Notes under the pieces: model-generated
What the model was told of the DNA's origin: nothing
The model's input: only the letters and a program-made list of their open reading frames with translations
Database searches by the model: none
Part shown: in pieces, positions 3,387 through 24,330 of the stretch
Numbering within the stretch: the first letter of the stretch is position 1
Layout of the letters: each line of letters begins with the position of its first letter
Virus record (IMG/VR): IMGVR_UViG_3300013000_000010
Span: 23,160-87,159 of that record
Reading direction: 5' to 3' (one strand)
Source: a virus
DNA: 64,000 nt
Translations under genes and position numbers: made by a program

Positions 3387-4660
3387 CAGGCGTCGTCCTC
3401 GCCCTGTATGACGTCTATATCAGGCGGGATATCGTCATCGTCTCCGTACAGCTCCGCCGTGGCCATATAGTCAAAGTTGCCACTGAGATTACCCTCGCCC
3501 GCTGTTTCGCCGGCGCGGTTCTCTCCGTCCGCCTGGACGTCACCGAATCCCCCGCCATCCACCAGCGCTGCCACTTGTGCACGGCGTTCCTCTACAAAGG
3601 CCGCGCTGGTGGCCTGCTGCTCACGAAATTTCCGCGCATCCCGGTCCAGTTCGTCCTCAGTGACCGCGCCGCTGTCATCTACTGGCGGTTCGGCGTTCTT
3701 GAGCTCGTTCTCAAGGCGTCTGGATAATGACTCCGGCAGTTTGATACCGTGCCGCTCGATGTACTCGGCCGTCTCCAGTAAATCCCAGTCCTTTTCCTCG
3801 CGCAGCTGGTAGGCGCGGCTGATCACCTCACCGGCGTTATGCGTCAGTGCATGCTTCTCATTGTCGCGCCGGTTCTTGTCGGTGCCGCTGGCGATCGCCG
3901 CCACCCGCGTAGCGTGGTCATTGACCAGATAACCGACCTCGATCATCAGTTTGGTCATCTTGAGGATGGGGTGTGGCCCGCCGCCGCCCTGGTCATCATC
4001 CTTTTTGCCGCCGTTCTCCAGGTTACTGGCTTCCAGCTCAAACAGTTCGACCGCCCGCGCCGTGGTGCGCTTCAGCAGGTCCATGTGCGCCAGCGAGTCA
4101 AACAGCACCGTCATGGCGCTGGCTTCCACGCCCTCGCCCAGCACCTCTAATGCTGATTCGTAATCCTCCGGCCGCGGATAACCGCGCCGGTTGGCCACCA
4201 GCTTGGTTTCATGCCCTTCCTCAAACGGTTTTCCCTCCCCGCGAGGCTTTGGGGTGTGCTTCGGGCGCCCGGAATCCTGATCTCCGGCATTTATGATCTT
4301 TTTGGCATGTGAAGCATTGGGCTTTTTCTTCCCGCCAGGCTGCGCTGCTGCGTCAGCGCGTGGTTCCAGCACCCCCTCTAAAGCCGCGCTATGCCTGACT
4401 TTGCGCCCGTTTCGGCGGATGATCAGGTCTTCTTGTCTGGCGTGATCATTTTGATGATCAGAAGCGTGATCACTCGAATGATCATGATTGTGATCACCAG
4501 CCAGATCACGCATTGCGGCCAGCGCTTTGCCGTTCAGCTCCCGACGTGCGGTGTTAAACGGCAGACCGTAGTGCTCACAGTACTCTTTGACGGTTATCCC
4601 GTTCTGCGCCTTCTGCTCGATGAAGGCTTTTCTGTGGTCATCCCAGTTAACTTTGGACAT
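3386..4660 (-). CDS. pacA: Terminase small subunit
   Basis: N-terminal HTH; overlaps pacB start; contains TGATCA array like P1 pacA. Confidence 0.9.
   Translation of the reverse strand: MSKVNWDDHRKAFIEQKAQNGITVKEYCEHYGLPFNTARRELNGKALAAMRDLAGDHNHDHSSDHASDHQNDHARQEDLIIRRNGRKVRHSAALEGVLEPRADAAAQPGGKKKPNASHAKKIINAGDQDSGRPKHTPKPRGEGKPFEEGHETKLVANRRGYPRPEDYESALEVLGEGVEASAMTVLFDSLAHMDLLKRTTARAVELFELEASNLENGGKKDDDQGGGGPHPILKMTKLMIEVGYLVNDHATRVAAIASGTDKNRRDNEKHALTHNAGEVISRAYQLREEKDWDLLETAEYIERHGIKLPESLSRRLENELKNAEPPVDDSGAVTEDELDRDARKFREQQATSAAFVEERRAQVAALVDGGGFGDVQADGENRAGETAGEGNLSGNFDYMATAELYGDDDDIPPDIDVIQGEDDA
4420..4508. repeat. pac site: TGATCA (Dam-site) hexamer array inside pacA
   Basis: TGATCA at 4420, 4443, 4455, 4467, 4479, 4491 and AGATCA at 4503; two more at 4719 and 4731. 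Confidence 0.8.
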
Positions 4661-4695
4661 GGTTTATCGTTCAAAAGAGGCCAATAAACCGGGAT

Positions 4696-4714
4696 GGTAT
4701 GGAGTCTGTAATTT
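4696..4714 (-). promoter_or_regulatory. Late-promoter motif upstream of pacA
   Basis: AAATTACAGACTCCATACC; one of seven related copies upstream of late genes. Confidence 0.7.
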
Positions 4715-4845
4715 GTAGTGATCACATTAATGATCACTATCGCAGCTAACGCGCCGTTTTGGTGCCTTACTAATGGACAAAACCGGAATATGTGGTACTT
4801 TGATTGCTCGTTCGTAGTATGAAATTAACCACTGGATAAAATTAA

Positions 4846-7292: not shown

Positions 7293-7691
7293 TCAGCGGA
7301 GGCTTCTCAGGAAGTGGCTGACGGTCGGGGACCACAAAGTTACTATGTCACTTCCTAACTGCTGGATGACTGCGCTGTAATCGCTTAATGGCACATGCTC
7401 CCCTGCATCACCCATAAAAATCAGTTGCTGAGATGTACCGGCTTTCGCTGCGTCCACGCTGTAGGCAAATCCGGGAGTAGAACCGAAATGCTCCACCAGC
7501 TGCTCTGCCCGCCATGCGAAACGCACACCACAGTTCTTCCGGAGCTCGAGCGTCACCGTGCCGCCGACGAGCATAGCCGAAATTTCTGTACCGGCACTGG
7601 GATAACTGCGTTTACAGGAGACAGACGTAATTTGGCAGTTGGCAGCTTGCCAGTCCAGCGCTGGCAGGTCACTGATTTTAACTGTTTCCAC
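7293..7691 (-). CDS. Hypothetical protein
   Basis: 132 aa ORF coupled to the upstream gene. Confidence 0.65.
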   Translation of the reverse strand: METVKISDLPALDWQAANCQITSVSCKRSYPSAGTEISAMLVGGTVTLELRKNCGVRFAWRAEQLVEHFGSTPGFAYSVDAAKAGTSQQLIFMGDAGEHVPLSDYSAVIQQLGSDIVTLWSPTVSHFLRSLR

Positions 7692-8275
7692 TACACCAGC
7701 CTCCAGTCGCTTGCGAGAAGATCCGTTGAGGCTGGCGCCCAGTCGGAAACCGTTAGCTTTTCGGTATCAATGAGCAAAAGCTGGGGCATCTGCGTTACGG
7801 CCACATCTTGGCTGCAATCAAAGTAGCGGGCCGGTACGCCATACATATCTGATCCATTCAGTGCTGCGCGTGTCAGCCCTCTGGTGAGGCGCAGATGAAC
7901 ACCCTTCCCCCATGCTGCCCGCGCCACTTTGCAGCCCTCTGACAGCCACAGCTGCGCGACCGCCAGCGGTGCTTGCTCCTGCCTGAAACTCAGTTCGCCG
8001 GTATCAATCATCGCTTCGTTGCGCAGGATAAGATCATTCAGCTTAATCAGCGCGGCACAGGCGGCGTGGTTCAGGGTTTCGCCAAAACCGGTCATTGTCA
8101 GGCCGCTTTTGCTGATAACGGCTGCGTATCCGTCAGTTTTGGTCTCAGAAGTCTCTGTAATGGTGTATCCCAGGCGGGCAATGACAGCCAGCAGCGCCAT
8201 GTAATCGCCTGCATAGTCGGCTTCTGCGTCTGCAATCATGGCGATCGTTGCATTCAATTGTTGAGCGGTCATCAT
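7691..8275 (-). CDS. Two-domain protein: phage ABA-sandwich-like N-terminus plus Tad2/DUF2829-like C-terminus
   Basis: C-terminal KVARAAWGKGVHL ... DWAPASTDLLASDW matches the DUF2829 pattern; N-terminal GETLNHAACAALIK resembles ABA-sandwich domains. Confidence 0.65.
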   Translation of the reverse strand: MMTAQQLNATIAMIADAEADYAGDYMALLAVIARLGYTITETSETKTDGYAAVISKSGLTMTGFGETLNHAACAALIKLNDLILRNEAMIDTGELSFRQEQAPLAVAQLWLSEGCKVARAAWGKGVHLRLTRGLTRAALNGSDMYGVPARYFDCSQDVAVTQMPQLLLIDTEKLTVSDWAPASTDLLASDWRLV

Positions 8276-10962: not shown

Positions 10963-11016
10963 CAAAAACCCTACTACACACAGCAAAGCCTACTCTGGAA
11001 TAGACTCTGATTTGTG

Positions 11017-11056
11017 AAAAAAGAGCGGATTAAACAGACAGTTATGATTAATCCGC
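11017..11056 (-). terminator. Terminator/attenuator close to the promoter
   Basis: GCGGATTAA ... TTAATCCGC-TCTTTTTT. Confidence 0.65.
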
Positions 11057-11111
11057 CAAATGCCTATTATGATTTTTGCACGGAGCCTTAAAGCTCTTGT
11101 CAGCGGGGAGG

Positions 11112-11140
11112 AATGTACACAAAACGGAGTAATGAAGCAA
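11112..11140 (-). promoter_or_regulatory. sigma70 promoter reading leftward into the RNA-rich region
   Basis: TTGCTT-17 bp-TACATT with TG immediately before the -10. Confidence 0.6.
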
Positions 11141-11170
11141 TGAAAATCTAAGAAAACTCTTAGATTTTCA
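11141..11170. promoter_or_regulatory. Operator-like inverted repeat (candidate C1 operator)
   Basis: TGAAAATCTAAGA-AAAC-TCTTAGATTTTCA, perfect 13-bp arms abutting the -35. Confidence 0.65.
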
Positions 11171-11188
11171 AAGCAAGAAAGAAGGGGG

Positions 11189-12478
11189 TTAGCGGCGTTT
11201 TACTTTGGGGTTTCTGATGTTCTCTATGTCGCCGTTCGCCTGCGCCCACTTTATGCACCAGCTGTTCACGGCAGCGCGAATTTCATTCACAGAGGCCTCA
11301 CTCAGCCCCTTCACTTTTGCCAGCTCGTCAGGCAACTCACCACCAGCATCGGCAACCGTCTCATACCCGGCCTTTGTCAGAACGTTAAGGAGGCGTGTCG
11401 GTATGGCCAGCTCGGAAACAGGCGCAGCCTTGCCGTCAAGAATGCGTTGGTGAAGACGCGGGAAATCCTGCGCCAGACGCTTCATGATCCGTGTGTGCAG
11501 CTCGTCATTGATAGCCGTGTCCCACATCGGCGCAAGCTCAGGCAGCAGGCGGAAGACCGGGTTGCCCCATATCCCTGGCACCACGTCCATTGCCAGCATC
11601 ATCGCGGTACGGATCTGGAAGTGGAAATCAGCCGTCTCGATAGACACATCCCGGACACCGTGGAAAACGCTCAGGCCAAAGTGGAAGTTGTAGATGTAGC
11701 AGCCCACGTCGCCAGAGCCATCCGGCAGCTGAAGAAGGAACTGCTGCACATCTTCCCGGCCATCATGAAATTCGACACGCTCCTTCAGATGGTTATAAAG
11801 TGCGGTCGTCTTCATCAGGTCATTGGCCGTTGCGGCGCGCTGGCGGCGTTCTTCTCCGACAACTTTATCCGCGATGTTGAGTTTGCTCTGTAGCTCCTGC
11901 CGCTTAAGGCTGTCTTTTTTGCGATCGGCGCGCTGCTGTGAAATGGTTTTGTCACGTTCATTCAGGTCTCGCGCCAGGCGCTCAGGATTCTTGCGGCGAT
12001 ACTGTTCATATTCCTGTGAGACAGAGGTAAACGCCAGCTGCGCGGTGGTCAGGGCAGACCTGATACCCTCCAGCTGATTCTCTGCATTGATTACGCGGTT
12101 GTCCGCCTCCAGCACCCTCTGAGTAGCCGCCTCACGGGCCTCTTCAATGGCGTTCTCGGCATCGAGCCGAATTTTTGTTACTTCGTTGACCAGTGCGGAC
12201 TGCGCGCCCAGCTGCTGCTGTACCTGCTCCAGTGTGTCTAATAGCAGGTTGTAGGTATCAGCCTCATGATTGAGCCGCATGCCGATATCGATCTGGATCT
12301 GCTCCAGAGCGTTCGTGCAGTTATCAAGAAGGCGCAGCTCCAGGTCATCAAGCGTCAGGCGTTTACGGATGGAATTAAGCTGGCTGTAAGCGGTGACAAA
12401 CGCCTGGTGCAGAACATCGTCATCGACGTTGCATACAGGGAGATTTTGCAGCTGCTGGAGTGGAGCGAGTGTAGTCAT
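11189..12478 (-). CDS. pmgS: PmgS-like coiled-coil protein with C-terminal RNAP alpha-CTD-like HhH domain
   Basis: 429 aa; long coiled coil; PVSELAIPTRLLNVLTKAG...VKGLSEASVNEIRAAV resembles RpoA CTD; symbol from size and phage context. Confidence 0.6.
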   Translation of the reverse strand: MTTLAPLQQLQNLPVCNVDDDVLHQAFVTAYSQLNSIRKRLTLDDLELRLLDNCTNALEQIQIDIGMRLNHEADTYNLLLDTLEQVQQQLGAQSALVNEVTKIRLDAENAIEEAREAATQRVLEADNRVINAENQLEGIRSALTTAQLAFTSVSQEYEQYRRKNPERLARDLNERDKTISQQRADRKKDSLKRQELQSKLNIADKVVGEERRQRAATANDLMKTTALYNHLKERVEFHDGREDVQQFLLQLPDGSGDVGCYIYNFHFGLSVFHGVRDVSIETADFHFQIRTAMMLAMDVVPGIWGNPVFRLLPELAPMWDTAINDELHTRIMKRLAQDFPRLHQRILDGKAAPVSELAIPTRLLNVLTKAGYETVADAGGELPDELAKVKGLSEASVNEIRAAVNSWCIKWAQANGDIENIRNPKVKRR

Positions 12479-12536
12479 ATTGAGAATCAGATCCGCGTGT
12501 AATTTGCGGCGGATGATAACTCGAAATTAACCACTG

Positions 12537-12554
12537 TCTAAGGTTTTTCTTAGA
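12537..12554. promoter_or_regulatory. Operator-like palindrome over the pmgS promoter
   Basis: TCTAAG-GTTTTT-CTTAGA overlapping a minus-strand TTAGAC-17-TATCAT. Confidence 0.55.
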
Positions 12555-12619
12555 TTTAGTTAAACTATCAAGATGAGGTTGCTGGTGGCGTTATCGTGGA
12601 CTCCGCCACCAGCGGAGGG

Positions 12620-12916
12620 TTACAGCAGTTTCAGCGCCGTTACGGCTATGGCGGCCACAGTGATAATCATCAGCACGTTCAGCAGTACAGACGGCACTTT
12701 GATCTCGCCGGTCTCATACTCTGTCTGCGTCATCCTGCCCAGGTAGCTGTGCGAGATCAGCACTGCGTTCTCGTCAAAGCTCAGCGTAGCCCGGACGTTC
12801 TCAAGCGCCGGGCGGGAAATCTGACGTGTGGCCAGCTGGACGATTCCGGATCTCATCTTACCGTTGTCGCCCATGTAGCAGACAGTATGGTAGTGGTATG
12901 GCTTATCCTGGCCCAT
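12620..12916 (-). CDS. Hypothetical protein with C-terminal membrane anchor
   Basis: 98 aa; hydrophobic C-terminus. Confidence 0.7.
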   Translation of the reverse strand: MGQDKPYHYHTVCYMGDNGKMRSGIVQLATRQISRPALENVRATLSFDENAVLISHSYLGRMTQTEYETGEIKVPSVLLNVLMIITVAAIAVTALKLL

Positions 12917-13434
12917 CAGCTGATAACTACCCAGTCGCTGACGCGCATATCGTTAATGCTCAGTTCGTGTATCTCAACGCCGCCGTCCGGTCGGGTCAGT
13001 ATCAGCACGTCACAGCCTTCATGCTCCTGCTCAAGCGACACAAAGTAACCCGCCTCCCACGCTTCCCGGCGCATCAGCAATTCCGGATCCTCTTTCATCT
13101 TCAGCAAGGCGCGGTCATAGCTGCACGTAATGGCACCGATTCCAATTTTGCTCAAACCTTCGATCTGTGCCGTCGTCATGCGTCCGCGTCCTTCTGTTAA
13201 TGATTTTCTCAAGATGTAACTGATCCCCTTCACGCCGCCGAAATAGTTCAGCTGGCGGTTACTCATGCCGCTGCGCGACATAAGCTCCTGCTTCGGTACT
13301 TTGAAAATGCCGACGTCCATAGCCATGTCGGCAAAAACCGAAAGCCCACGGCCCAAGCCGTCGCGCGTCTTTTTACGGCGCGCATACTGCTCAAAGGTGG
13401 GGCATCCGGTAAAAAACTGCGCGTCAAAAAGCAC
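12916..13434 (-). CDS. TetR-like HTH fused to a Tad2/DUF2829-like domain
   Basis: ELMSRSGMSNRQLNYFGG (HTH); YDRALLKMKEDPELLMRREAW ... ELSINDMRVSDWVV (DUF2829 pattern). Confidence 0.55.
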   Translation of the reverse strand: MLFDAQFFTGCPTFEQYARRKKTRDGLGRGLSVFADMAMDVGIFKVPKQELMSRSGMSNRQLNYFGGVKGISYILRKSLTEGRGRMTTAQIEGLSKIGIGAITCSYDRALLKMKEDPELLMRREAWEAGYFVSLEQEHEGCDVLILTRPDGGVEIHELSINDMRVSDWVVIS

Positions 13435-14112
13435 TTATTCGCTCCAGAAACCGTCATTCTCATGCGCTGGCATTGCTTCGCCTGCTTTGAGAACTGCGTA
13501 TTGTTCCATCACGCTGATCGTCTCTTCAGGTGAAAATGATAAAAGAACGTAGTACCCCTGCTTTTTCAGGCGACGCATCCACGTCAGCTGAAACTCAGAA
13601 GGCATATTCTTACCGTGTTTCTGCTCTACCCGCATTCCGTGATAGATGCCTGCCGGTATTTCCAGGGACATATCCGGAACGCCCCGCTTTGCGCCCTCAG
13701 CCTCGATCGCTGCGGCGGTCGCCTTTAAGCGAAATCCTCCGTTTGGTACGGCATACAGATGGTCATAAATAACCCTGTTGTGACGGTGAAAATGGTCAAA
13801 GATTCGAACCTGATCGTAATGCTCTTGTTTGCCTTTGCGCAGATCGGGATTTTTGACGAGAGCGGCCAGCGCTTTTGCGTGAACCGATATTTCTAAAGCT
13901 GCCGCTAACCAGGCAGAGGTTTTGCCGGATTTTACCGACACTCCACCAGCAGATTTAACAGCTGCTTTGGTGCGGGTTTTTTGATTTTTTTTATAGGAGT
14001 GCAACCACTCTTCACTGAAGCGCATATCCGAAATTGCCAACCGATGATTAATTAGTCTAAAAAGTGGATCTGCGTTGGGGGGTATTTTTAACGCTGAGAC
14101 GGGAAAAAACAA
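13435..14112 (-). CDS. VRR-NUC family PD-(D/E)xK nuclease
   Basis: YAVPNGG ... GAKRGVPD ... VEQK ... SEFQ. Confidence 0.85.
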   Translation of the reverse strand: MFFPVSALKIPPNADPLFRLINHRLAISDMRFSEEWLHSYKKNQKTRTKAAVKSAGGVSVKSGKTSAWLAAALEISVHAKALAALVKNPDLRKGKQEHYDQVRIFDHFHRHNRVIYDHLYAVPNGGFRLKATAAAIEAEGAKRGVPDMSLEIPAGIYHGMRVEQKHGKNMPSEFQLTWMRRLKKQGYYVLLSFSPEETISVMEQYAVLKAGEAMPAHENDGFWSE

Positions 14113-14161
14113 GCCTGTAATCTACATCTTTGAAAGATAGTTATTACAGGCAGTTATCATT

Positions 14162-14326
14162 TTACTGGTGGGCCATCCACATGAACGCCAGGCTGTAAAC
14201 GATACCGAGCGTACTGAAGCAAAGCACAAGGAACCTGCCAATCACATTAGAAAAAGGCGTGGCTTTTGCCGAAAGAGTCTTGTTTGAGGTGGCATTAACA
14301 AAATCACGCTGCGCAAAATTATTCAT
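14162..14326 (-). CDS. 54-aa peptide with C-terminal TM helix, missing from the ORF track
   Basis: MNNFAQRDFVNATSNKTLSAKATPFSNVIGRFLVLCFSTLGIVYSLAFMWMAHQ; AAAGAG upstream. Confidence 0.5.
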   Translation of the reverse strand: MNNFAQRDFVNATSNKTLSAKATPFSNVIGRFLVLCFSTLGIVYSLAFMWMAHQ

Positions 14327-14386
14327 GATATATTCTCTTTGTTAGGTGCAGGGGTGTACGTCGCCAAACTGAACCCCTGCAAAGTG

Positions 14387-14414
14387 AAAGCCCGGCCTTA
14401 TGGTCGGGCTTTTT
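14387..14414. terminator. Bidirectional-looking terminator
   Basis: AAAGCCCGGCC-TTAT-GGTCGGGCTTTTT. Confidence 0.75.
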
Positions 14415-14480
14415 CTTTGTCACCACCTTAGCGGCTTAACGCAATCTAAGGGTTTTCTAATTTACCGTCAATTTAAATCG

Positions 14481-14762
14481 CTACTTTTCGTCACTTTTCA
14501 CCTGTAACAGGACTTCCCCGGCTGTTTTCAGACGTTCCAGCGCGTCCTGTAGGGCAAAAATCCAGCTGGCCTTATCCAGCTCCCGTACACGCTTTACCCT
14601 CTCCTGTGTTGATGGATTGATGACCCATACCCATGCTTCATGATCCTGGCGATTACGCATCGTAAATACCCCAGTCGGGGGGTAAAAATTCAGCTCAGCA
14701 CCATTGGCATAGGCATAGGCTTCCAGTTCCTCCAGCTTAAGGTACTTGTTCTCTCGCGGCAC
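14481..14762 (-). CDS. lxc: Lxc-like corepressor
   Basis: 93 aa; after ulx and darB as in P1; weak similarity (LEELEAYAYANGAEL; VRELDKASWIFALQDAL). Confidence 0.55.
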   Translation of the reverse strand: MPRENKYLKLEELEAYAYANGAELNFYPPTGVFTMRNRQDHEAWVWVINPSTQERVKRVRELDKASWIFALQDALERLKTAGEVLLQVKSDEK

Positions 14763-14770
14763 GGTGTCTC

Positions 14771-15199
14771 CTAAAATCTTCTTTTCTCTATGGATTCATC
14801 ATAGCTGACGTACATGTAAGGTTCAGTATCATCCGCCGAAGGCATCACGGGAAGCAGATGTACCGCGCTGAATACGGCATCGTTTTCGGTACGGTCGTCA
14901 GCGTACAGGTGCGCAGCTATGACCGTAAGAGCAGGACGTGAAAGCGAGTATATTTCAGCTACATCGCTTTCGACTATCTGCCCAAATTTAGTAGTAGCAC
15001 GTTCCAGCAATAACGTTTTGACGGCAGGCCACCACGGCCCAAAAGCCCGGTACGCAAACCTCGCACTGCTGACGCGCTTTACTAAATTTTCCAGATAGTT
15101 TACTAAAAAGGCCTCTTCGGTTCGCCCGTCCAGCGCCAGCGGTAGCAGGCTCTCGATGTAGGTTTCGGTTGGCTTGATGGTATCAATGAGTGTCGTCAT
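14771..15199 (-). CDS. ulx: Ulx (DarB packaging/chaperone factor)
   Basis: 142 aa immediately downstream of darB. Confidence 0.7.
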   Translation of the reverse strand: MTTLIDTIKPTETYIESLLPLALDGRTEEAFLVNYLENLVKRVSSARFAYRAFGPWWPAVKTLLLERATTKFGQIVESDVAEIYSLSRPALTVIAAHLYADDRTENDAVFSAVHLLPVMPSADDTEPYMYVSYDESIEKRRF

Positions 15200-15229
15200 G
15201 TTTGACGGCCCTCGCGGGCCGCTCCTAAA

Positions 15230-18200
15230 TTATGCGTTTACAATATCGTTGCGTAGCGCATCGAGATCGTGGGAGGAAGGGATAAGCCAGGCGGCTTGTG
15301 TGAACTCGTTTCCGGCTACCGGATCTTCTTCAAAATTCCAGAATTTCGCGCCGTACTTCTCTTTGATGAGATCACGCACCGCTTTGCGCTTAAGCACCGG
15401 CTTATCACTGGTGTCCGTCAGGACATAAGCGCCACCAGCCGGGAAGTCGATTTTAAAGGTGCGGTTCTTCCACTTGCGCGAAGCCACCAGCTCCTGCTCG
15501 TTTGTCATGACCTGGAAGCCATCGGACTGCTTCTCTGCCTGAACGGTACGCACGGTCGTTGCCGCGGCCGCCGCGAGTCTGTTGGCTTCTTCACGGCGGG
15601 CCTCCACAACGTCAGGCGACAGCTTGCCGGTTATCAGCGCTTTATAATCGTCCCACGTCGTCGCGTACTCGCGGTAATCGCCTTTTTCCATTCGATCCAG
15701 CCACAGATAAACCATCGTTAGCTGCCGCTTAATAGCGCTGGATGAGGCGAACGTTTCGACGTTGATTCCGGCGTCATCGAGCGCACTCAGTGCAACGCCG
15801 GCGCGCAGATAAATTGCTGCCGGTGACTCCGTTACGGTTGCTGCCCGGTCAACGTCACTGTAAGCATCAAACTTAGACTTCACCAGCAGCACGGCAATAC
15901 CGGCCTGGCTATCACTCTCGCTCATCTGGCGGAACTGCTGCAGCGCGGCGGCGGCATACTGTTCTGTCAGTGATTTGACAGCCTGCACCTTGCCGTCGGC
16001 CATCTCGTTACGCAGTTGTTCGAATATTGCTTCGTACTCATGACGGTTAGAGAAGCCCTCCATGCCGTTACGGAACTGACGAAGGCTGATAACGTTGCTC
16101 CAGTAGTAACGGTCCTGCGCCGAACCCAGGAAGGCAGCATGAGCCTCTTCATCATTCGCGCCGGTCACTGACCGCTTTTTGGGGTCATTCGCTTCGAACT
16201 CGGCCACTAGTCTGTTAAAGACTTTAACCACGTCCGCCATGCCCGCCTGCTTCCCGTAAGCCTGCAATGCTGTGTCGTAGTTACGGCCAAACATTGCCTT
16301 AAAGAAGCCCTGCGCGCTGTAGATGTTGTTGTCCACGCTGTACTGATAAAGCTCACGCTTCAACTGCTCATCGGTGTGATCCGGGTACAGCCACGTTTCA
16401 GCCGGTCGCTCTTCGCTGGCGCTGATCGTGCCTCTCAAGTAAGCCAGTTTCAGGCTGCCGTCATTGTCGCGGTAGAGCCATCCGTCGGTGTTCACATTCA
16501 GGACGCCCGCGTGAATGGCCGCGTAGAAGTCAGCACGGCTCAGCGTGTCAGCCAGGTTTACCGGCTCGATGCCCTTCACTGCTGTCTGGAGCGCTTTTGC
16601 CTGGTCACTGGTGATATCCACGCGGTCGCCCACCAGCGCAGACGGCATTTCAGCAAAGCCACCGACATTCGGACCGGTATAGCAGCGCAACGGCTTGTGG
16701 ATCAGCTCAACCTCAACCGTATTTTTCTCCGGGAAGAATTTGCGGATCTGGAATACGCCCTTTTCTTCGCGGTCATCGTTGAGCCAGATTTCATAGGTCG
16801 CGCCAATTCGCACCAGCTGGCCATCGGGCAGTTTCATGTACTGCTCCGGGGCGCGCAGCACGTCCGGATCGACTTCCAGCGCGCCGGACTTAATTGCTCG
16901 TTCCACTTCCCCGCGAGAGCGCTTAATGGTGCTGGCCGCACTTTTAGAGCGCGTCAGCGCTTTGCGTGCGCCGCTCAGCTCCTGCTCCAGCTTCTTCTGC
17001 TTCGCCAGATTTTCACGCAGTGCAGCACGCGCTACGCGGCGATCCTGACCACGCCAGGCATCAGCTGACCGCTTGCCCTCTCTTTCAAGCTCACGGTTAT
17101 AGGCTGCTTCAGCGTCGGTGACGTCCTCGCGCAGGCCATCAATCTCGCCGTTGATCGCATCAAACGCTGCTGACAGCCTGGTAATGTTCTCTTCCAGCAC
17201 TTCAACAGGTGTAGCAGCGGCGACGCTTGCCTTCAGGTAGATATCCAGCGCGGCAGCGGCTTCGCGCTCGGCCTGCTGACGGTCGGCTTCACGCTTCGCT
17301 TTCAGCTGTGCATCGACGCGGGCGCGGCGCTCTTCCGGATTAGCGGCCAGAAGTAGGCTTTGCTCTTCTTTCGACTCCACATCGCCGTTTTTAATGCTGG
17401 ATACGTCGGATTTCATGACGTCGTTGATCCAGTTTTTCTTGCGCTGCAGCGTCTCCAGACGGAACTCGTCAAATGACCCTTTGCCACAGTAGTAATGCAC
17501 GCGCATGGTGTCGCGCTCGGAGCCCACGCGGGCGCCGCGTCCGTTACGCTGGTCGATACTGGCTGGCGTCCAGGGGAGTGTCAGATGGTGCGTATCGGCG
17601 GTGCCTTTATGCAGGTTGATCCCCACTTCGGCCTTTTTGTTGCAGATGATGATTGGCGTGCGGCCTTCGTTGTAGTCGGCGGCGATCCCTTCCATACCGG
17701 CCAGCGAGGCGTCACTCTGCGCGGCCTGATAATCCTCATAGCGCGCCAGATCCTGATAGTACTTATCCCATGCGCCTTCCTTAAAGCTGCCGTCCGCTTT
17801 TTCCACCGGCTCAACCGGTTTCTTCACGGGCTTCAACTTCACGCCAGACGCTTTGCTGACTGTTGTGGCGTTGATGATGCCTATCTGCTGCTCCGCCAGG
17901 CCCAGGGCGCTGGCGATGATGCGGCGCAGCTTGTTGTGCTGGGACTTTTCATCCATGAAAATGATCTGCTTGCCATCTGGCAGGCCTGCCTTCAGGTTTT
18001 CAATCAGCGCGGCATACTTCGGCGGTACCGGGTGCGAGACGTTTTCCATGCTGATACCGGCAGCGGCGATCGCATCCAGTACCTGCTGCTCCAGCGTGTC
18101 GCTCACCATCAGCTCCACGACGCCCCCGCGATTCTTCAGCGTGGTCTTGACTACCTTGCTGGTGCGCGTGTCGGTTAGGCCGGTTTCCGCGTCCTCAGCG

Positions 18201-21200
18201 GTCTCTTCATCATCACCGACAAGCAGCTGGCCACCAGCCTCACCCGGCAGCGAGCGCGCCACCTGTTTCGCCAGCTCTGTGTCCTCTTCACGGAAGCGGA
18301 ACGTGATAGCAGAGCGGTACAGGTCCGGATCGATAACCACCTTATCCATGTCGCGGATAACAGAGAAAATGAAGTCGTCTTCGTTTTGCACAATGGAAAT
18401 ATGACCATCGCCATTGTCCTCTACGATTTCCTTTTGCCCGATACGGCTGGCGCGCAAACGGAGCTCTTCATAAAGCTCTTTCTGGTCCCGCGTCATCGGC
18501 ACGCCAACGGTTTTCTCGTCGAGGCCTGGGATCTTCACGCTGTCTTTCACGTCAGCAGCAGATTTAAGCGTCGTCCAGCGATGGAAGATGCCGCGCAGAC
18601 CATCAAGGTTTTTGAAGCCCACCAGCCCCTGCTTGTCTTCTAGTTCGCCTGAAATCTTCTGGACGGTAACGGTGTCGGTTTCCCCGAATACGCGCACAAA
18701 GTCATCCGGCGTCAGTATCCCCATCGCCTTCCACTCATCCAGCGACACGACGTGTGACAGCATGTTAAAGGCGTCAATCGGGGAGTTAACCAGCGGTGTT
18801 GCGGTCAGCATAACGACGCCGCGGCCGTTGTACTTCCTCATCATGTACTGGCTTTTCACGGCCATATCGCGGGCAATCTTGGAGACGGACGGATTAGGCA
18901 GGTAGGCCAGCTGGCCCGCTTCACGTCCGGCGCTGTGCGAGTTGCGGTAGTTATGCCCTTCGTCTGCGATCACGCTGTCAAAGTGCATATCCTCAAAGTA
19001 AGGGATCTGACTCTTTTTCTTCGTGCCGGTATCGGCGGCTTTGTCGCGGAGTTTGTTACGGGACGTGGCGGCGCGGTGCGTGGACTTCATCAGATCCGTG
19101 CGGCCATTCTCAATCTGGTTAAAGACTGCCTGACTGGAGTTTTCCTCAATCGTCTCCGGACGCATCGGAATATCGCCAAACTGCTCTTTGGTCATTATCA
19201 CGGCGCGGTAGTTGGAGACCGGGATCATGTTCATGCGCTCAAGCACGGTTGCGGCTGCGGACTCTTTCACCACGTTACGCATTACCGGCTGGCCGTCTTT
19301 GTCCAGTTTCGGCTCGTTGTTCTCGTCGCGCTCCTGGGCCTGCATGATCTGGCCATCTTCGCCGCGCACTTCATCCAGGCCGACAAACAGCATGTTCTGG
19401 AAGGCTTCGGCACTGTAGAAACTCTGTGCTTCGTGATACCAGTTCTGGAGGACGGCTTTCGGTACGACGTAGACGGTTCGCTTACTGCGCCCCACCTCGT
19501 AGTTATAGGCTTCCAGCGCCAGCGCCGTGGTGGTTTTACCCAGACCCGTGCCAAAGCCCATGATGCCGCGGCCGTCTTCCGACAGGCGCCGGACTTCCGC
19601 ATTCTGATAGCTCAGAGGAATACGTTTGCCGCTGATCTGCTTCAGCTGCAGCGAGGCAGACGAGTGCTCAAACGGAACGTAGCCGTTAAAGGCGTCGTTG
19701 TAGTCGCTGACGACGGTTTCCACATCCGGGTGCGTGCGCAGCCAGTCGTTGAAATGTGACTCCAGATCGCTGATGCGCTTCAGGTACGCATTGGCATTTA
19801 CCCCGCGTGGCTTCACGCCATTCAGGTAGTTTTCCAGCTGATTGTAGAAGCCGTCTTTGTAGCTGGCGCGCTTGAACTCGGTCACGCCGCCTTTGCTGGT
19901 GACAGAGCGAACCTGGTAGCCAGAGAAAACGCCGTCTTTGCCTGCGTAATTGTCTTCTGCGGTCAGATAACCGTTGTCGTTTTCCAGGTCCTGCGTGTAT
20001 TTGAAGTCATCAAAGCCCTGCTCGATCAGAAACTCTTTGATCAGGCGGCGGTCCAGCCAGCGGGCATTGAGGTTAACCGTAATGTCTTCGATCGGCGTGT
20101 GCTTGCGCTTCTCGTTAATGGCTTCCAGCTGGCGGACATAGTTCGCCTTTACCGGGCCATCCGGCGCGTCATCAATCAGCCCCGCCAGGCGGGAGACTTT
20201 GCCGCGCACGTTCCCGCTGGTGGCGCGGGCCAGTGGCATGATGTTGCCGTTGCCATCGAGGGCGATCTCCGGGAAGGTCGCCAGGTGCGCCAGCAGCGCG
20301 TCGTCATCCTCCGGCAGCTGGCCGGTAAACGCGGCGCGGAAGGCGGCCAGTGCAACCGGAACCAGATCAACGTCGCTGAAAAGATGTGATACCACCTGCT
20401 CCGGGCTGGCGAAATCAACTGCCACAGCCTCGCTACGGTCGATGGTGCCGTTCAGCAGCGCCGACAGATCGCCTTCACGGCTGACGTTGGCCTGAAAACT
20501 CAGCCAGCCCTTTGCGCTGGCGTCAGACAGCCCCGCCAGTTTCAGGCCTTTCGGCGTGCCGTACTGGCCCACCTCTTCGCTCACCAGGCGGGCAGCGTCG
20601 GCAATGATGCCGCTGGCGTCGCCGCCCAGCATCTGCGTATTCAGCGCGTCATTGATGCGCAGACCGATAATCGAGGCACGCATAACGCGCCATCGGTGGC
20701 CGGGCTTCTGCTGCATAGCGAAACGGATCGCGGCGTGAATGCGATCGTCAAACAGCTGCGGGTATTCCATGCTGGCGGCATACAGGGCGCGGCTGTCCAG
20801 CGACAGCATGCCGTTGATGGTGCGCGTTTTTGTCTGCAGGTCGCCAAACGTCGCCGCGCCGAACCGCTCCGCGTCGATTCCGCTCGATGCGGTGGTGGCG
20901 TCTTTGATAAAACGGGTGCCGTCATAGGTGTGCCAGACGCCAGCCATAAGGCGCTTATCACCTTCAACCGGCGACTGCCAGACAGCGGCAGGCGTACCCA
21001 GCCGATCCCAGTCGATACGGCTATCAAAGCGGCGCGACAGCGCGGCCTTCATTGCCGCATTGGTCAGCTGGCCATCTTTCTTCACGACCAGGATGTTATT
21101 GAAGTCAGATCGCTCAGTTTCACCGTGAACAAAGCGACGGCCTTCGGTTTCGAACCATTTGCCCCGGATGAACGTTGGCCATAGCACGCTTGCCGCCTCA

Positions 21201-22099
21201 AGCGACTGTTCATCGCTATCATGCACCAGCTGCGTCAGCGCTTCGGTATGCTTTCGCAGTACCCACACATCCACCACCGTTGCGGTACCGCTTTCGGCAA
21301 ACGTGCCGGACGGCATGCGGTGCGCGCCCAGGAACTCCGCCACACGGGAAACGCGATCGCGCAGCTTTTTGTTGTTGCCGCCGCCGTCGGTCATGCCGTT
21401 CGGCACCACCAGCACCACCAGCCCGCCATACTTCACCTTGTCGATGGTGCGCATCACAAAGTAGTGGCCGACGTTAGTTTCATCGCGGTAAGCGGGATCG
21501 AGCTCGGCAAAGCCAGTGCGCGAGTCGCCAAACGGCACATTGCCTACGGCATGGTCATAGCTGTTATCCGGCACTGATGCCGCCAGCTTCTCAAACGCGC
21601 CCAGGCGAACATCGTCCTCCGGGTGCAGCAGTTGGTTAATGCGTCCCGACGTGTCCGAAATCTCGGCCGACGTCATCATGGCGCCAGCCGGTTTTGTCTC
21701 CTGAAAAACGCCAGTACCGGCAGACGGCTCCAGCATGTGACCGCTGGTAATACCGTAATCGGAAAACAGATCCCAGATACCTTCCGCCATGAATGGCGGT
21801 GTGTAGTACTCATACTGACTGCCGCCGCTGCCTTCCAGACCGCCCTCGCCGCTGTAGCCCGCCAGCACCCGGCGCTGATCGTCGGTCAGTTTATTGCCGT
21901 CGAAGCCCTGGGGCAGTGAGTTAAGCAGCGCGATCGCATTGTCGTTTGCATTCCGGCGCTCACGCTGCAGGCTCACGCCTTCACGCTTGGTCACGCCAAA
22001 CGCTACTACGGTTCGCTGTTTGTGCAGGCGCATGACCAGCCGGATCAGTTCCTCAACCGATCCCGCCTCCTGCACAGCCCTGTTTACTGGATTTTCCAC
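15230..22099 (-). CDS. darB: DarB, virion anti-restriction protein (N6-MTase plus SNF2 helicase)
   Basis: 2289 aa; LEPSAGTG and GNVPF methylase motifs; GTGLGKT, DEGH, TATP helicase motifs. Confidence 0.95.
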   Translation of the reverse strand: MENPVNRAVQEAGSVEELIRLVMRLHKQRTVVAFGVTKREGVSLQRERRNANDNAIALLNSLPQGFDGNKLTDDQRRVLAGYSGEGGLEGSGGSQYEYYTPPFMAEGIWDLFSDYGITSGHMLEPSAGTGVFQETKPAGAMMTSAEISDTSGRINQLLHPEDDVRLGAFEKLAASVPDNSYDHAVGNVPFGDSRTGFAELDPAYRDETNVGHYFVMRTIDKVKYGGLVVLVVPNGMTDGGGNNKKLRDRVSRVAEFLGAHRMPSGTFAESGTATVVDVWVLRKHTEALTQLVHDSDEQSLEAASVLWPTFIRGKWFETEGRRFVHGETERSDFNNILVVKKDGQLTNAAMKAALSRRFDSRIDWDRLGTPAAVWQSPVEGDKRLMAGVWHTYDGTRFIKDATTASSGIDAERFGAATFGDLQTKTRTINGMLSLDSRALYAASMEYPQLFDDRIHAAIRFAMQQKPGHRWRVMRASIIGLRINDALNTQMLGGDASGIIADAARLVSEEVGQYGTPKGLKLAGLSDASAKGWLSFQANVSREGDLSALLNGTIDRSEAVAVDFASPEQVVSHLFSDVDLVPVALAAFRAAFTGQLPEDDDALLAHLATFPEIALDGNGNIMPLARATSGNVRGKVSRLAGLIDDAPDGPVKANYVRQLEAINEKRKHTPIEDITVNLNARWLDRRLIKEFLIEQGFDDFKYTQDLENDNGYLTAEDNYAGKDGVFSGYQVRSVTSKGGVTEFKRASYKDGFYNQLENYLNGVKPRGVNANAYLKRISDLESHFNDWLRTHPDVETVVSDYNDAFNGYVPFEHSSASLQLKQISGKRIPLSYQNAEVRRLSEDGRGIMGFGTGLGKTTTALALEAYNYEVGRSKRTVYVVPKAVLQNWYHEAQSFYSAEAFQNMLFVGLDEVRGEDGQIMQAQERDENNEPKLDKDGQPVMRNVVKESAAATVLERMNMIPVSNYRAVIMTKEQFGDIPMRPETIEENSSQAVFNQIENGRTDLMKSTHRAATSRNKLRDKAADTGTKKKSQIPYFEDMHFDSVIADEGHNYRNSHSAGREAGQLAYLPNPSVSKIARDMAVKSQYMMRKYNGRGVVMLTATPLVNSPIDAFNMLSHVVSLDEWKAMGILTPDDFVRVFGETDTVTVQKISGELEDKQGLVGFKNLDGLRGIFHRWTTLKSAADVKDSVKIPGLDEKTVGVPMTRDQKELYEELRLRASRIGQKEIVEDNGDGHISIVQNEDDFIFSVIRDMDKVVIDPDLYRSAITFRFREEDTELAKQVARSLPGEAGGQLLVGDDEETAEDAETGLTDTRTSKVVKTTLKNRGGVVELMVSDTLEQQVLDAIAAAGISMENVSHPVPPKYAALIENLKAGLPDGKQIIFMDEKSQHNKLRRIIASALGLAEQQIGIINATTVSKASGVKLKPVKKPVEPVEKADGSFKEGAWDKYYQDLARYEDYQAAQSDASLAGMEGIAADYNEGRTPIIICNKKAEVGINLHKGTADTHHLTLPWTPASIDQRNGRGARVGSERDTMRVHYYCGKGSFDEFRLETLQRKKNWINDVMKSDVSSIKNGDVESKEEQSLLLAANPEERRARVDAQLKAKREADRQQAEREAAAALDIYLKASVAAATPVEVLEENITRLSAAFDAINGEIDGLREDVTDAEAAYNRELEREGKRSADAWRGQDRRVARAALRENLAKQKKLEQELSGARKALTRSKSAASTIKRSRGEVERAIKSGALEVDPDVLRAPEQYMKLPDGQLVRIGATYEIWLNDDREEKGVFQIRKFFPEKNTVEVELIHKPLRCYTGPNVGGFAEMPSALVGDRVDITSDQAKALQTAVKGIEPVNLADTLSRADFYAAIHAGVLNVNTDGWLYRDNDGSLKLAYLRGTISASEERPAETWLYPDHTDEQLKRELYQYSVDNNIYSAQGFFKAMFGRNYDTALQAYGKQAGMADVVKVFNRLVAEFEANDPKKRSVTGANDEEAHAAFLGSAQDRYYWSNVISLRQFRNGMEGFSNRHEYEAIFEQLRNEMADGKVQAVKSLTEQYAAAALQQFRQMSESDSQAGIAVLLVKSKFDAYSDVDRAATVTESPAAIYLRAGVALSALDDAGINVETFASSSAIKRQLTMVYLWLDRMEKGDYREYATTWDDYKALITGKLSPDVVEARREEANRLAAAAATTVRTVQAEKQSDGFQVMTNEQELVASRKWKNRTFKIDFPAGGAYVLTDTSDKPVLKRKAVRDLIKEKYGAKFWNFEEDPVAGNEFTQAAWLIPSSHDLDALRNDIVNA

Positions 22100-23939: not shown

Positions 23940-24197
23940 TCAGTGCAGAAGCGAAATAACCTGCCAGTCGGCTGACAAAATATCTTCAGGTGTTGGATCA
24001 TAAATTGATAACGCGCCGGACTCGCCCATGAATATAAATTGCATCTGGCTGTCTGAGTCGGCCTGCGTAAATACGTGAATAGGTTTATCACCCCATTTGG
24101 CACGGCGACAGATGCTACTGTCTGTCTGGCTTATGGCAAGCATGGCATTGGCGAACCTAAGCACTGCCTGGGACGGCGTATAAGGGATATCAGGCAT
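23940..24197 (-). CDS. Stand-alone Tad2/DUF2829-like protein (85 aa; start at 24197)
   Basis: CRRAKWGDKPIHVF ... YDPTPEDILSADWQV; GAGGAG RBS 6 nt before ATG. Confidence 0.7.
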   Translation of the reverse strand: MPDIPYTPSQAVLRFANAMLAISQTDSSICRRAKWGDKPIHVFTQADSDSQMQFIFMGESGALSIYDPTPEDILSADWQVISLLH

Positions 24198-24330
24198 GGA
24201 GTGCTCCTCGTACAAAAGGAAGCGTCACTACGGGAGGTTCCAATCTCCGGGTGGTGACGTTGACAGGGTTGGAACTACCGGCGTACGAGGAGACCGGCCT
24301 ACCCGAAGGTAGCCCCGCCAACGCCACCAT
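24190..24330 (-). CDS. Ash/Icd-family leader peptide (46 aa)
   Basis: MVALAGLPSGRPVSSYAGSSNPVNVTTRRLEPPVVTLPFVRGALHA; stop overlaps the next start (ATGCCTGA). Confidence 0.7.
   Translation of the reverse strand: MVALAGLPSGRPVSSYAGSSNPVNVTTRRLEPPVVTLPFVRGALHA

Follow-up and report, generated by a model that had tools for sequence, protein, structure and literature searches.

Gene organization around the fusion ORF

The window analyzed here, a stretch of 64,000 nucleotides, comes from a P1/D6-like phage-plasmid of Pantoea, in a virus record of 90,665 bp that has direct repeats at its termini. It carries P1/D6-type genes for PmgS-like, Ulx-like and Lpa proteins and for a DarB-like protein of 2289 amino acids. 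On the minus strand of the window lies an ORF of 172 amino acids, in which a predicted TetR-type helix-turn-helix (HTH) domain is followed by a domain of the Tad2 fold. We refer to its product as the fusion protein. The features of the ORF and its neighborhood are as follows.

11189..12478, minus strand: PmgS-like gene, the end of the conserved block
12620..12916, minus strand: downstream gene, 98 amino acids, phrog_3177; it holds the pmgR position of phage D6
12916..13434, minus strand: whole fusion ORF, TetR-type HTH plus Tad2 fold, 172 amino acids (GTG start 13434-13432, TGA stop 12918-12916)
12919..13122, minus strand: minimal Tad2-fold domain, residues 105-172, acidic (pI about 4.5), from Pfam, the AlphaFold2 model, Foldseek and VIA
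13123..13146, minus strand: inter-domain segment IGIGAITC, residues 97-104, of low model confidence
13126..13434, minus strand: N-terminal domain, residues 1-103, modelled as two short helices and then TetR-type alpha1-alpha5 (pI about 10)
13243..13293, minus strand: predicted HTH, residues 48-64 (helices 48-55 and 59-64), from the model and aligned to the TetR_N HTH
13442..13447, minus strand: Shine-Dalgarno sequence CTGGAG, 7 nt 5' of the GTG, kept in 26 of 27 loci
13435..14025, minus strand: upstream PmgM-like VRR-NUC gene, 48% identical to P1 PmgM
14771..22099, minus strand: Ulx-like and DarB-like anti-restriction genes, upstream

A sequence-only reading of this DNA had placed the ORF exactly, and the sequence strings that it quoted were found. 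The TAA stop of the pmgM-like gene directly abuts the GTG start of the fusion ORF, the Shine-Dalgarno sequence sits within the 3' end of the pmgM-like gene, and the TGA stop shares one base with the ATG of the next gene. Related loci were drawn from species genomes and IMG/VR, and the ORF was intact and of full length (172–184 amino acids) in all 27 of them; the open frame of the most distant locus, L051, is 188 amino acids. GTG was the start codon in 26 of the 27 loci. The start in L051 is ambiguous, and its orthologue in the distant relative L005 begins with TTG. GTG and TTG starts throughout the family would suit a regulator better than a stoichiometric sponge, and the conserved GTG together with the position inside an operon likewise speaks against a sponge of that kind. 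An internal start at M86, from which a free Tad2-like product of 87 amino acids would be made, was considered and dropped, because the distant clade lacks the AGGA-like motif in front of it, and the Glu-Gly codons account for this motif.

The gene order is constant among the relatives: DarB-like, Ulx-like, a small conserved gene, a 54-amino-acid membrane peptide (in most relatives), PmgM-like, fusion, PmgR-like and PmgS-like. Phage D6 has the same gene block, and P1 has pmgN to pmgQ in the slot and no Tad2-like domain anywhere. The occupant of the slot in D6, orf11 (66 amino acids), was compared with the fusion and found to be unrelated. The slot, which follows anti-restriction genes, is therefore an accessory position whose content varies.

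Two more Tad2-like genes are present in the same genome, at 7691-8275 (minus strand, 194 amino acids, 40.3 bits) and 23940-24215 (minus strand, 91 amino acids, 31.5 bits). Both pass the cut-off of the Pfam family PF11195, and both have W-G in place of the W-N motif and thus lack its Asn. With these two genes in the genome, a plain sponge role would already be covered. PF11195 matches were found three times in D6, at syntenic or similar places, and not in P1. Near the lpa gene of L005 (12444-12899), a protein of 151 amino acids matches the Pfam family Sequestin (PF21825), and one ESM Atlas cluster unites Sequestin and a Tad2-like domain in a single protein of 158 amino acids.

Several small elements lie upstream of the pmgM-like gene. 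The 54-amino-acid ORF (14162-14326, minus strand) has a hydrophobic C-terminal half and likely encodes a membrane peptide; it is found in L001, L022 and L023, and a 58-amino-acid version in L005. A hairpin with AT-rich 19-bp arms, followed by TTGTTTTTT (14113-14151, minus strand; kept in L001), is located directly 3' of this ORF and abuts TTG 14112, the start of the pmgM-like gene in the ORF list and in the Pantoea plasmid annotation. As the homologues of 190–196 amino acids begin at the equivalent of ATG 14025 (MRFSEE...), the true start is probably this ATG rather than the TTG, and the hairpin would be a terminator or attenuator. A stem-loop at 14340-14380 (minus strand; GCAGGGGT...ACCCCTGC) comes after a conserved terminator hairpin (14380-14419), just upstream of the small ORF. 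At the corresponding place in L005 (6625-6665) the arms read GCGGGT...ACCCGC, that is, the pairing is kept and the sequence changed, and the stem-loop may be a structured leader RNA.

For transcription, two raw-read RNA runs with the same species label gave no reads. Two RNA-library runs (X10 and X13), compared with positions 11000-15400 of the window, contained a 98-kb contig from a phage-plasmid of about 90% identity. Because its depth is flat, this contig cannot show transcription, and it is probably DNA carry-over or a high-copy episome.

The C-terminal domain adopts the Tad2 fold

A Tad2-like domain had been called by eye at the C-terminus, and profile and fold searches agreed with this call. 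PF11195 (Tad2-like, formerly DUF2829) covered the C-terminal 68 residues from end to end (residues 105-171 on profile positions 2-73 of 73) with 21.3 bits and an E-value of 4e-4; this score, and the 23.1 bits obtained in a six-frame search, are below the gathering cut-off of 25 bits. The profile matched all six close family members weakly, with scores under or close to the cut-off, which was exceeded by the most distant member, P0010 (35% identical; 28.5 bits). The full-length AlphaFold2 model, which was made with eight family sequences, had a mean pLDDT of 84.5, and its C-terminal domain was composed of one helix, four or five strands, a short helix and a last strand. When this domain was searched against the PDB with Foldseek, the best 23 rows were all Tad2 proteins (SPO1 Tad2, ModTad2, HgmTad2/AcrIIA7 and SptTad2), with E-values of about 4e-3, a probability of 1.00 and TM scores by target of up to 0.76. 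VIA, an aligner that works independently of Foldseek, gave Z values of 9.8 to ModTad2 (9EIB) and 9.7 to AcrIIA7 (8KBI), with an rmsd of 1.7–1.8 Å over 66 of the 68 residues. A DUF2829 cluster of the ESM Atlas also matched the C-terminal domain with a TM score of 0.70.

The N-terminal domain resembles TetR-type DNA-binding domains

The N-terminal domain was modelled alone with AlphaFold2 (pLDDT 89.8, pTM 0.83). The model contains two short helices, a long helix (21-41), the helices 48-55 and 59-64, another long helix (67-81) and a short one (88-96). In the comparison by VIA with 48,161 PDB representatives, the best 50 entries were TetR-family DNA-binding domains without exception (50 of 50; Z 5.7–8.0), and the best match was KstR in its DNA-bound form (Z 8.0, 70 residues). 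The full-length model returned two Tad2 rows and then the same list of TetR proteins. TetR proteins also ranked first in Foldseek, with a probability of about 0.9, an rmsd of 1.1–2.6 Å over 52–61 columns and E-values above 1.

Since the Z values for this domain fall in the range where the tool warns of a common helical arrangement, an independent profile-profile test was performed with hhalign, using 12 aligned TetR_N domains from E. coli K-12 as the reference. Residues 23-70 were aligned in register with alpha1-alpha3 of TetR_N, with a score of 19.7, a P value of 0.004 and a weak probability of 8%. As controls, 200 column shuffles gave a mean score of 10.6 (sd 2.0, maximum 16.8) and the reversed query gave 9.6; none of the 200 shuffles reached 19.7. 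By sequence, Pfam TetR_N (PF00440) gave no match at E-values up to 1, and the domain was left unnamed by Pfam, PHROGs, NCBIfam and the PDB sequence search.

The fold searches and the profile comparison together place both domain calls above chance, and the per-domain check with AlphaFold and Foldseek gave a TetR-type fold for the N-terminal half, where a TetR-type HTH had been called, and a Tad2 fold for the C-terminal half. The scores for the N-terminal half are moderate but very consistent. The N-terminal domain (residues 19-103) is predicted to be a divergent TetR-type HTH domain, formed by residues 19-96.

The conserved positions of the N-terminal domain were identified from 21 unique sequences. 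A basic arm (R19, R20, K22 and R24) was invariant, as were R60 and L62 in the HTH region and Y64, G66, G67, K69 and G70 at and just after the HTH. The pI of the N-terminal domain was 9.7–10.2 and that of the C-terminal domain 4.5–5.7 in all clades. From these properties and the fold we infer that the N-terminal domain binds DNA. In the inter-domain segment, G98, I99 and A101 were invariant in all clades.

Distribution and selection of the fusion

An exhaustive profile search of 1.8 billion representatives detected three real clusters with the same two-domain layout and one protein with tandem Tad2 domains, and neither half was found alone in this search. The tandem protein, P0012 (139 amino acids, metagenomic), has two Tad2-like domains in one chain. 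Two further candidates, P0009 and P0011, were rejected as repeat proteins whose scores are summed chance matches. A separate search for longer Tad2-containing proteins yielded only the fusion family and the 194-amino-acid paralogue family. The fusion was present in six plasmids of PLSDB, all of 87–96 kb and non-mobilizable, of which five are from Pantoea and one is labelled Acinetobacter; in four species genomes out of about 185,000 (Pantoea in three cases, Enterobacter in one); and on 23 contigs of IMG/VR. Among the sources searched, the fusion is confined to phage-plasmids of about 90 kb from Pantoea and Enterobacter. The fusion protein had no match by tblastn in 50,697 phage records. The PDB sequence search with the full-length profile gave one chance-level row (E 0.47) and no Tad2 or TetR chain; the feature search of the ESM Atlas gave no useful match, and the fold search there retrieved DUF2829 clusters only and no HTH-Tad2 cluster. 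In the literature, we found no paper on a Tad2-HTH fusion.

Both halves of the protein are under purifying selection, as the dN/dS values within clades were 0.07–0.26 for unsaturated pairs. Between the 172-amino-acid and the 184-amino-acid clades, dN was 0.8–0.9 for the C-terminal domain and 0.27 for the N-terminal domain, and the former is thus about three times more diverged.

The ligand pocket is only partly retained

In SPO1 Tad2, the main contacts to gcADPR are made by W25, N26, W73 and D79; T78, I63 and T65 are near the adenine, and D67, H71 and S76 hold water molecules. HgmTad2 has W21/N22 and S90/T92/D93 at the equivalent places, and a long insertion in which it binds cyclic dinucleotides. 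The Asn of the W-N motif binds phosphates in both proteins. The solved Tad2 proteins are homotetramers, in which the SPO1 pocket is formed between protomers and the dimers pack via alpha2 and beta2 (10.1101/2023.05.01.538930).

The pocket was mapped on the fusion protein by HMMER alignments of the Tad2-domain profile to the solved chains, and the variation at each position was taken from the 21 unique sequences, as follows.

SPO1 W25: W126, invariant
SPO1 N26: position 127, occupied by E, K, P, A, G or Q
SPO1 W73: position 156, His or Tyr
SPO1 D79: D162, invariant
SPO1 T78: position 161, occupied by N, E, D, P, Q or S
SPO1 S76: S159, Ser in 20 of 21
SPO1 D67: D150, Asp in 20 of 21

Two of the four gcADPR contacts are therefore kept, one is conservatively changed (position 156) and one is lost (position 127). 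Conservation of the Tad2 pocket residues was seen for W126 and D162, and not for the Asn of W-N or the second Trp. The insertion between beta2 and beta3, which contains alpha2 and forms the V-shaped dimer, is a gap in the alignments with 8SME and 8KBI, and the model has only a short loop in its place. Because this dimer insertion is missing, oligomerization in the manner of Tad2 is not assured. A four-copy prediction for residues 100-172 scored 0.02 against a mark of 0.42, a value that speaks neither for nor against oligomerization.

In a set of 17 close relatives, variation within the C-terminal domain was highest at positions 166, 153, 127, 145, 161 and 128, and five of these (127, 128, 153, 161 and 166) map to the loops and the short helix alpha3 that line the Tad2 pocket. 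Such hypervariability is unlike what is expected of a pocket that binds an invariant small ligand canonically. It would fit surface loops under relaxed constraint, a specificity that has been retuned, or binding to a protein partner. Ligand control at an inter-subunit pocket is possible, and any such ligand is probably not bound as gcADPR is bound by canonical Tad2. Sensing of a host alarm molecule by the fusion protein is regarded as rather doubtful.

Search for operator sites

To find candidate operators, perfect inverted repeats with half-sites of 6–8 and spacers of 0–12 were collected that are common to the genome and two distant relatives. No operator-like palindrome of this kind was common to the relatives, either near the gene or genome-wide. 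The shared repeats were GC-rich terminator hairpins or TGATCA repeats near a parM-like gene, and among the promoter-proximal inverted repeats upstream only terminator-like hairpins were common to the relatives. The P1 C1 operator consensus had no match in the window with up to three mismatches, and comparison with the P1 late promoter LPpmgL gave no usable motif. The TGATCA-centred inverted repeats lie in the divergent region beside the parM-like gene (about 4443-4718 of the window and about 72817-73094 of G002) and are shared with a distant relative; they are likely a partition site of the parC type.

A proposed DNA-binding regulator with a Tad2-fold domain

The reading that we prefer, to which we attach roughly even confidence, is that the fusion protein is a phage-plasmid regulator of low abundance that binds DNA and has the Tad2 fold in place of the effector and dimerization domain of TetR. 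Residues 19-96, the divergent TetR-type HTH, would contact DNA, and the minimal Tad2-fold domain of 68 residues would stand in for the all-helical domain of TetR proteins. By analogy with the Tad2 tetramers, this domain would join two or four chains, and the HTHs thus paired could bind a repeated or palindromic site. Both the oligomerization through the Tad2 fold and the regulatory role are inferred. Against this reading, the fusion gene lies in the middle of a block of co-directional pmg genes, not beside a divergent promoter as many TetR genes do; Pfam TetR_N does not match, the Z values do not exceed 8.0, the Foldseek E-values are above 1, and no operator was detected in the searches described above.

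The sequence-only reading went further and proposed that the phage senses host defence messengers with this protein and changes transcription in response. For the architecture on which the proposal was built, a TetR-type HTH plus a Tad2 fold, support came from the predicted structures, the fold searches and the comparison of profiles. The canonical gcADPR pocket is incomplete, with two of four contacts, and the putative sensing with a change of transcription is only weakly favoured. In its explicit form, a one-component sensor, the Tad2-fold domain would bind a messenger of host immunity, such as gcADPR, His-ADPR or a cyclic nucleotide, and through allostery would switch the binding of the TetR-type domain to DNA. 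The architecture follows the logic of TetR itself, in which the HTH precedes a domain for ligand binding and oligomerization; the fusion protein retains W126, D162, S159 and D150 and the Tad2 motifs R-x-x-W and D-W; and the conserved inter-domain segment suits coupling between the domains. The purifying selection on the C-terminal domain within clades also agrees with it, as does the location of the gene, an accessory slot of variable content downstream of darB and ulx, which are anti-restriction genes. However, the phosphate-binding Asn is replaced by six different residues in the family, the pocket-lining positions vary most even among close relatives, the SPO1 W73 is His or Tyr, and the cyclic-dinucleotide insertion and the alpha2 dimer element are both absent. 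We consider this one-component sensor unlikely. The same low probability is given to the variant in which the putative sensor has a Tad2 pocket retuned away from gcADPR, reads an immune messenger or another nucleotide-derived signal, and switches the TetR-type domain. If it were true, the phage-plasmid would reprogram its transcription when host immunity fires, toward counter-defence or between plasmid maintenance and lytic growth, and the hypervariability of the pocket loops would be explained by adjustment of the pocket to signals that differ between hosts.

It is quite unlikely that the protein is bifunctional in the way of AcrIIA1 and AcrIIA13-15, with the C-terminal domain as a working sponge or inhibitor and the HTH as a repressor of its own operon, and with no allostery between them. 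The combination of a conserved N-terminal HTH and a variable anti-defence C-terminal domain has a precedent (10.1101/799403). The faster divergence of the C-terminal domain between clades beside a conserved N-terminal domain, and the anti-restriction neighbors darB and ulx, are in line with this possibility. On the other hand, a sponge must be abundant, yet the gene begins with GTG or TTG and is internal to an operon; in addition, the pocket contacts are kept only in part, and no promoter-proximal inverted repeat of operator type is common to the relatives.

The Dar proteins are packaged in the P1 capsid. In a further reading, the protein would be an adaptor that does not bind DNA: its N-terminal domain would bind proteins (for example for capsid loading with the Dar proteins, or the PmgM-like nuclease), and its Tad2 fold would serve as a scaffold or bind some variable protein of the host. 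This would agree with the translational coupling of the gene, seen in every relative, to its pmgM-like and pmgR-like neighbors, with its position downstream of the DarB and Ulx genes on their strand, with surface loops whose hypervariability would be more typical of protein-protein arms races than of an invariant small molecule, and with the only moderate similarity to TetR, but it is very unlikely in view of the strongly basic domain with its invariant HTH and basic arm and of structural matches that are exclusively TetR DNA-binding domains, DNA-bound complexes included.

To our knowledge, Tad2 proteins have been described only as free sponges for Thoeris and CBASS messengers. In the regulator reading that we prefer, the joining of the Tad2 fold to a DNA-binding-type domain in a conserved phage-plasmid family means that this fold is also used as a building block of regulators. 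Should the domain still bind a signal, this would be the first case of a phage that controls its own genes by reading a host immune messenger instead of simply removing that messenger. If no signal is bound, a sponge fold would have been recycled as an oligomerization domain, and caution would be needed before every DUF2829 match is annotated as an anti-Thoeris protein.

Comparison with known systems

The solved Tad2 sponges are SPO1 gp34.65 (8SME/8SMF/8SMG and 8WJE), ModTad2 (9EIB and 8V3E), HgmTad2/AcrIIA7 (8KBI-8KBM) and SptTad2 (8WJD). The fusion protein shares with them the fold of residues 105-172 and retains R-x-x-W, the pocket Asp and the terminal D-W. It differs from them in the DNA-binding-type domain of 103 residues in front and in the GTG start. 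It also lacks both the Asn of W-N and the insertion with alpha2 between beta2 and beta3, and has His or Tyr in place of the second pocket Trp. The alpha2 insertion provides the dimer interface in Tad2 and the cyclic-dinucleotide site in HgmTad2.

The likeness to TetR regulators (KstR 5UA2, NalC 8KE8, AcrR 6A4L and E. coli AcrR) lies in the N-terminal alpha1-alpha4, which superpose with Z values of 5.7–8.0 over 55–85 residues, and in the order of the domains, with the HTH first and then a domain that could dimerize and bind a ligand. Unlike these regulators, the fusion protein has an alpha/beta Tad2 fold instead of an all-helical C-terminal domain and an extra conserved segment of 18 residues at the N-terminus, and its gene has no divergent target gene beside it.

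As in AcrIIA1 and AcrIIA13-15, a conserved N-terminal HTH is combined in one phage protein with a faster-evolving C-terminal domain of an anti-defence type. In proteins of this type, the HTH binds inverted repeats in their own promoter (10.1101/799403). The fusion protein differs from AcrIIA1 and AcrIIA13-15 in the class of its HTH and in its C-terminal fold, and no such promoter repeats were found. The Csa3-type CARF-HTH regulators of CRISPR loci are encoded by the host and consist of a CARF fold and a winged HTH. They embody the concept of a domain for immune messengers joined to a domain that binds DNA, and they would be functional analogues only if the fusion protein were a sensor.
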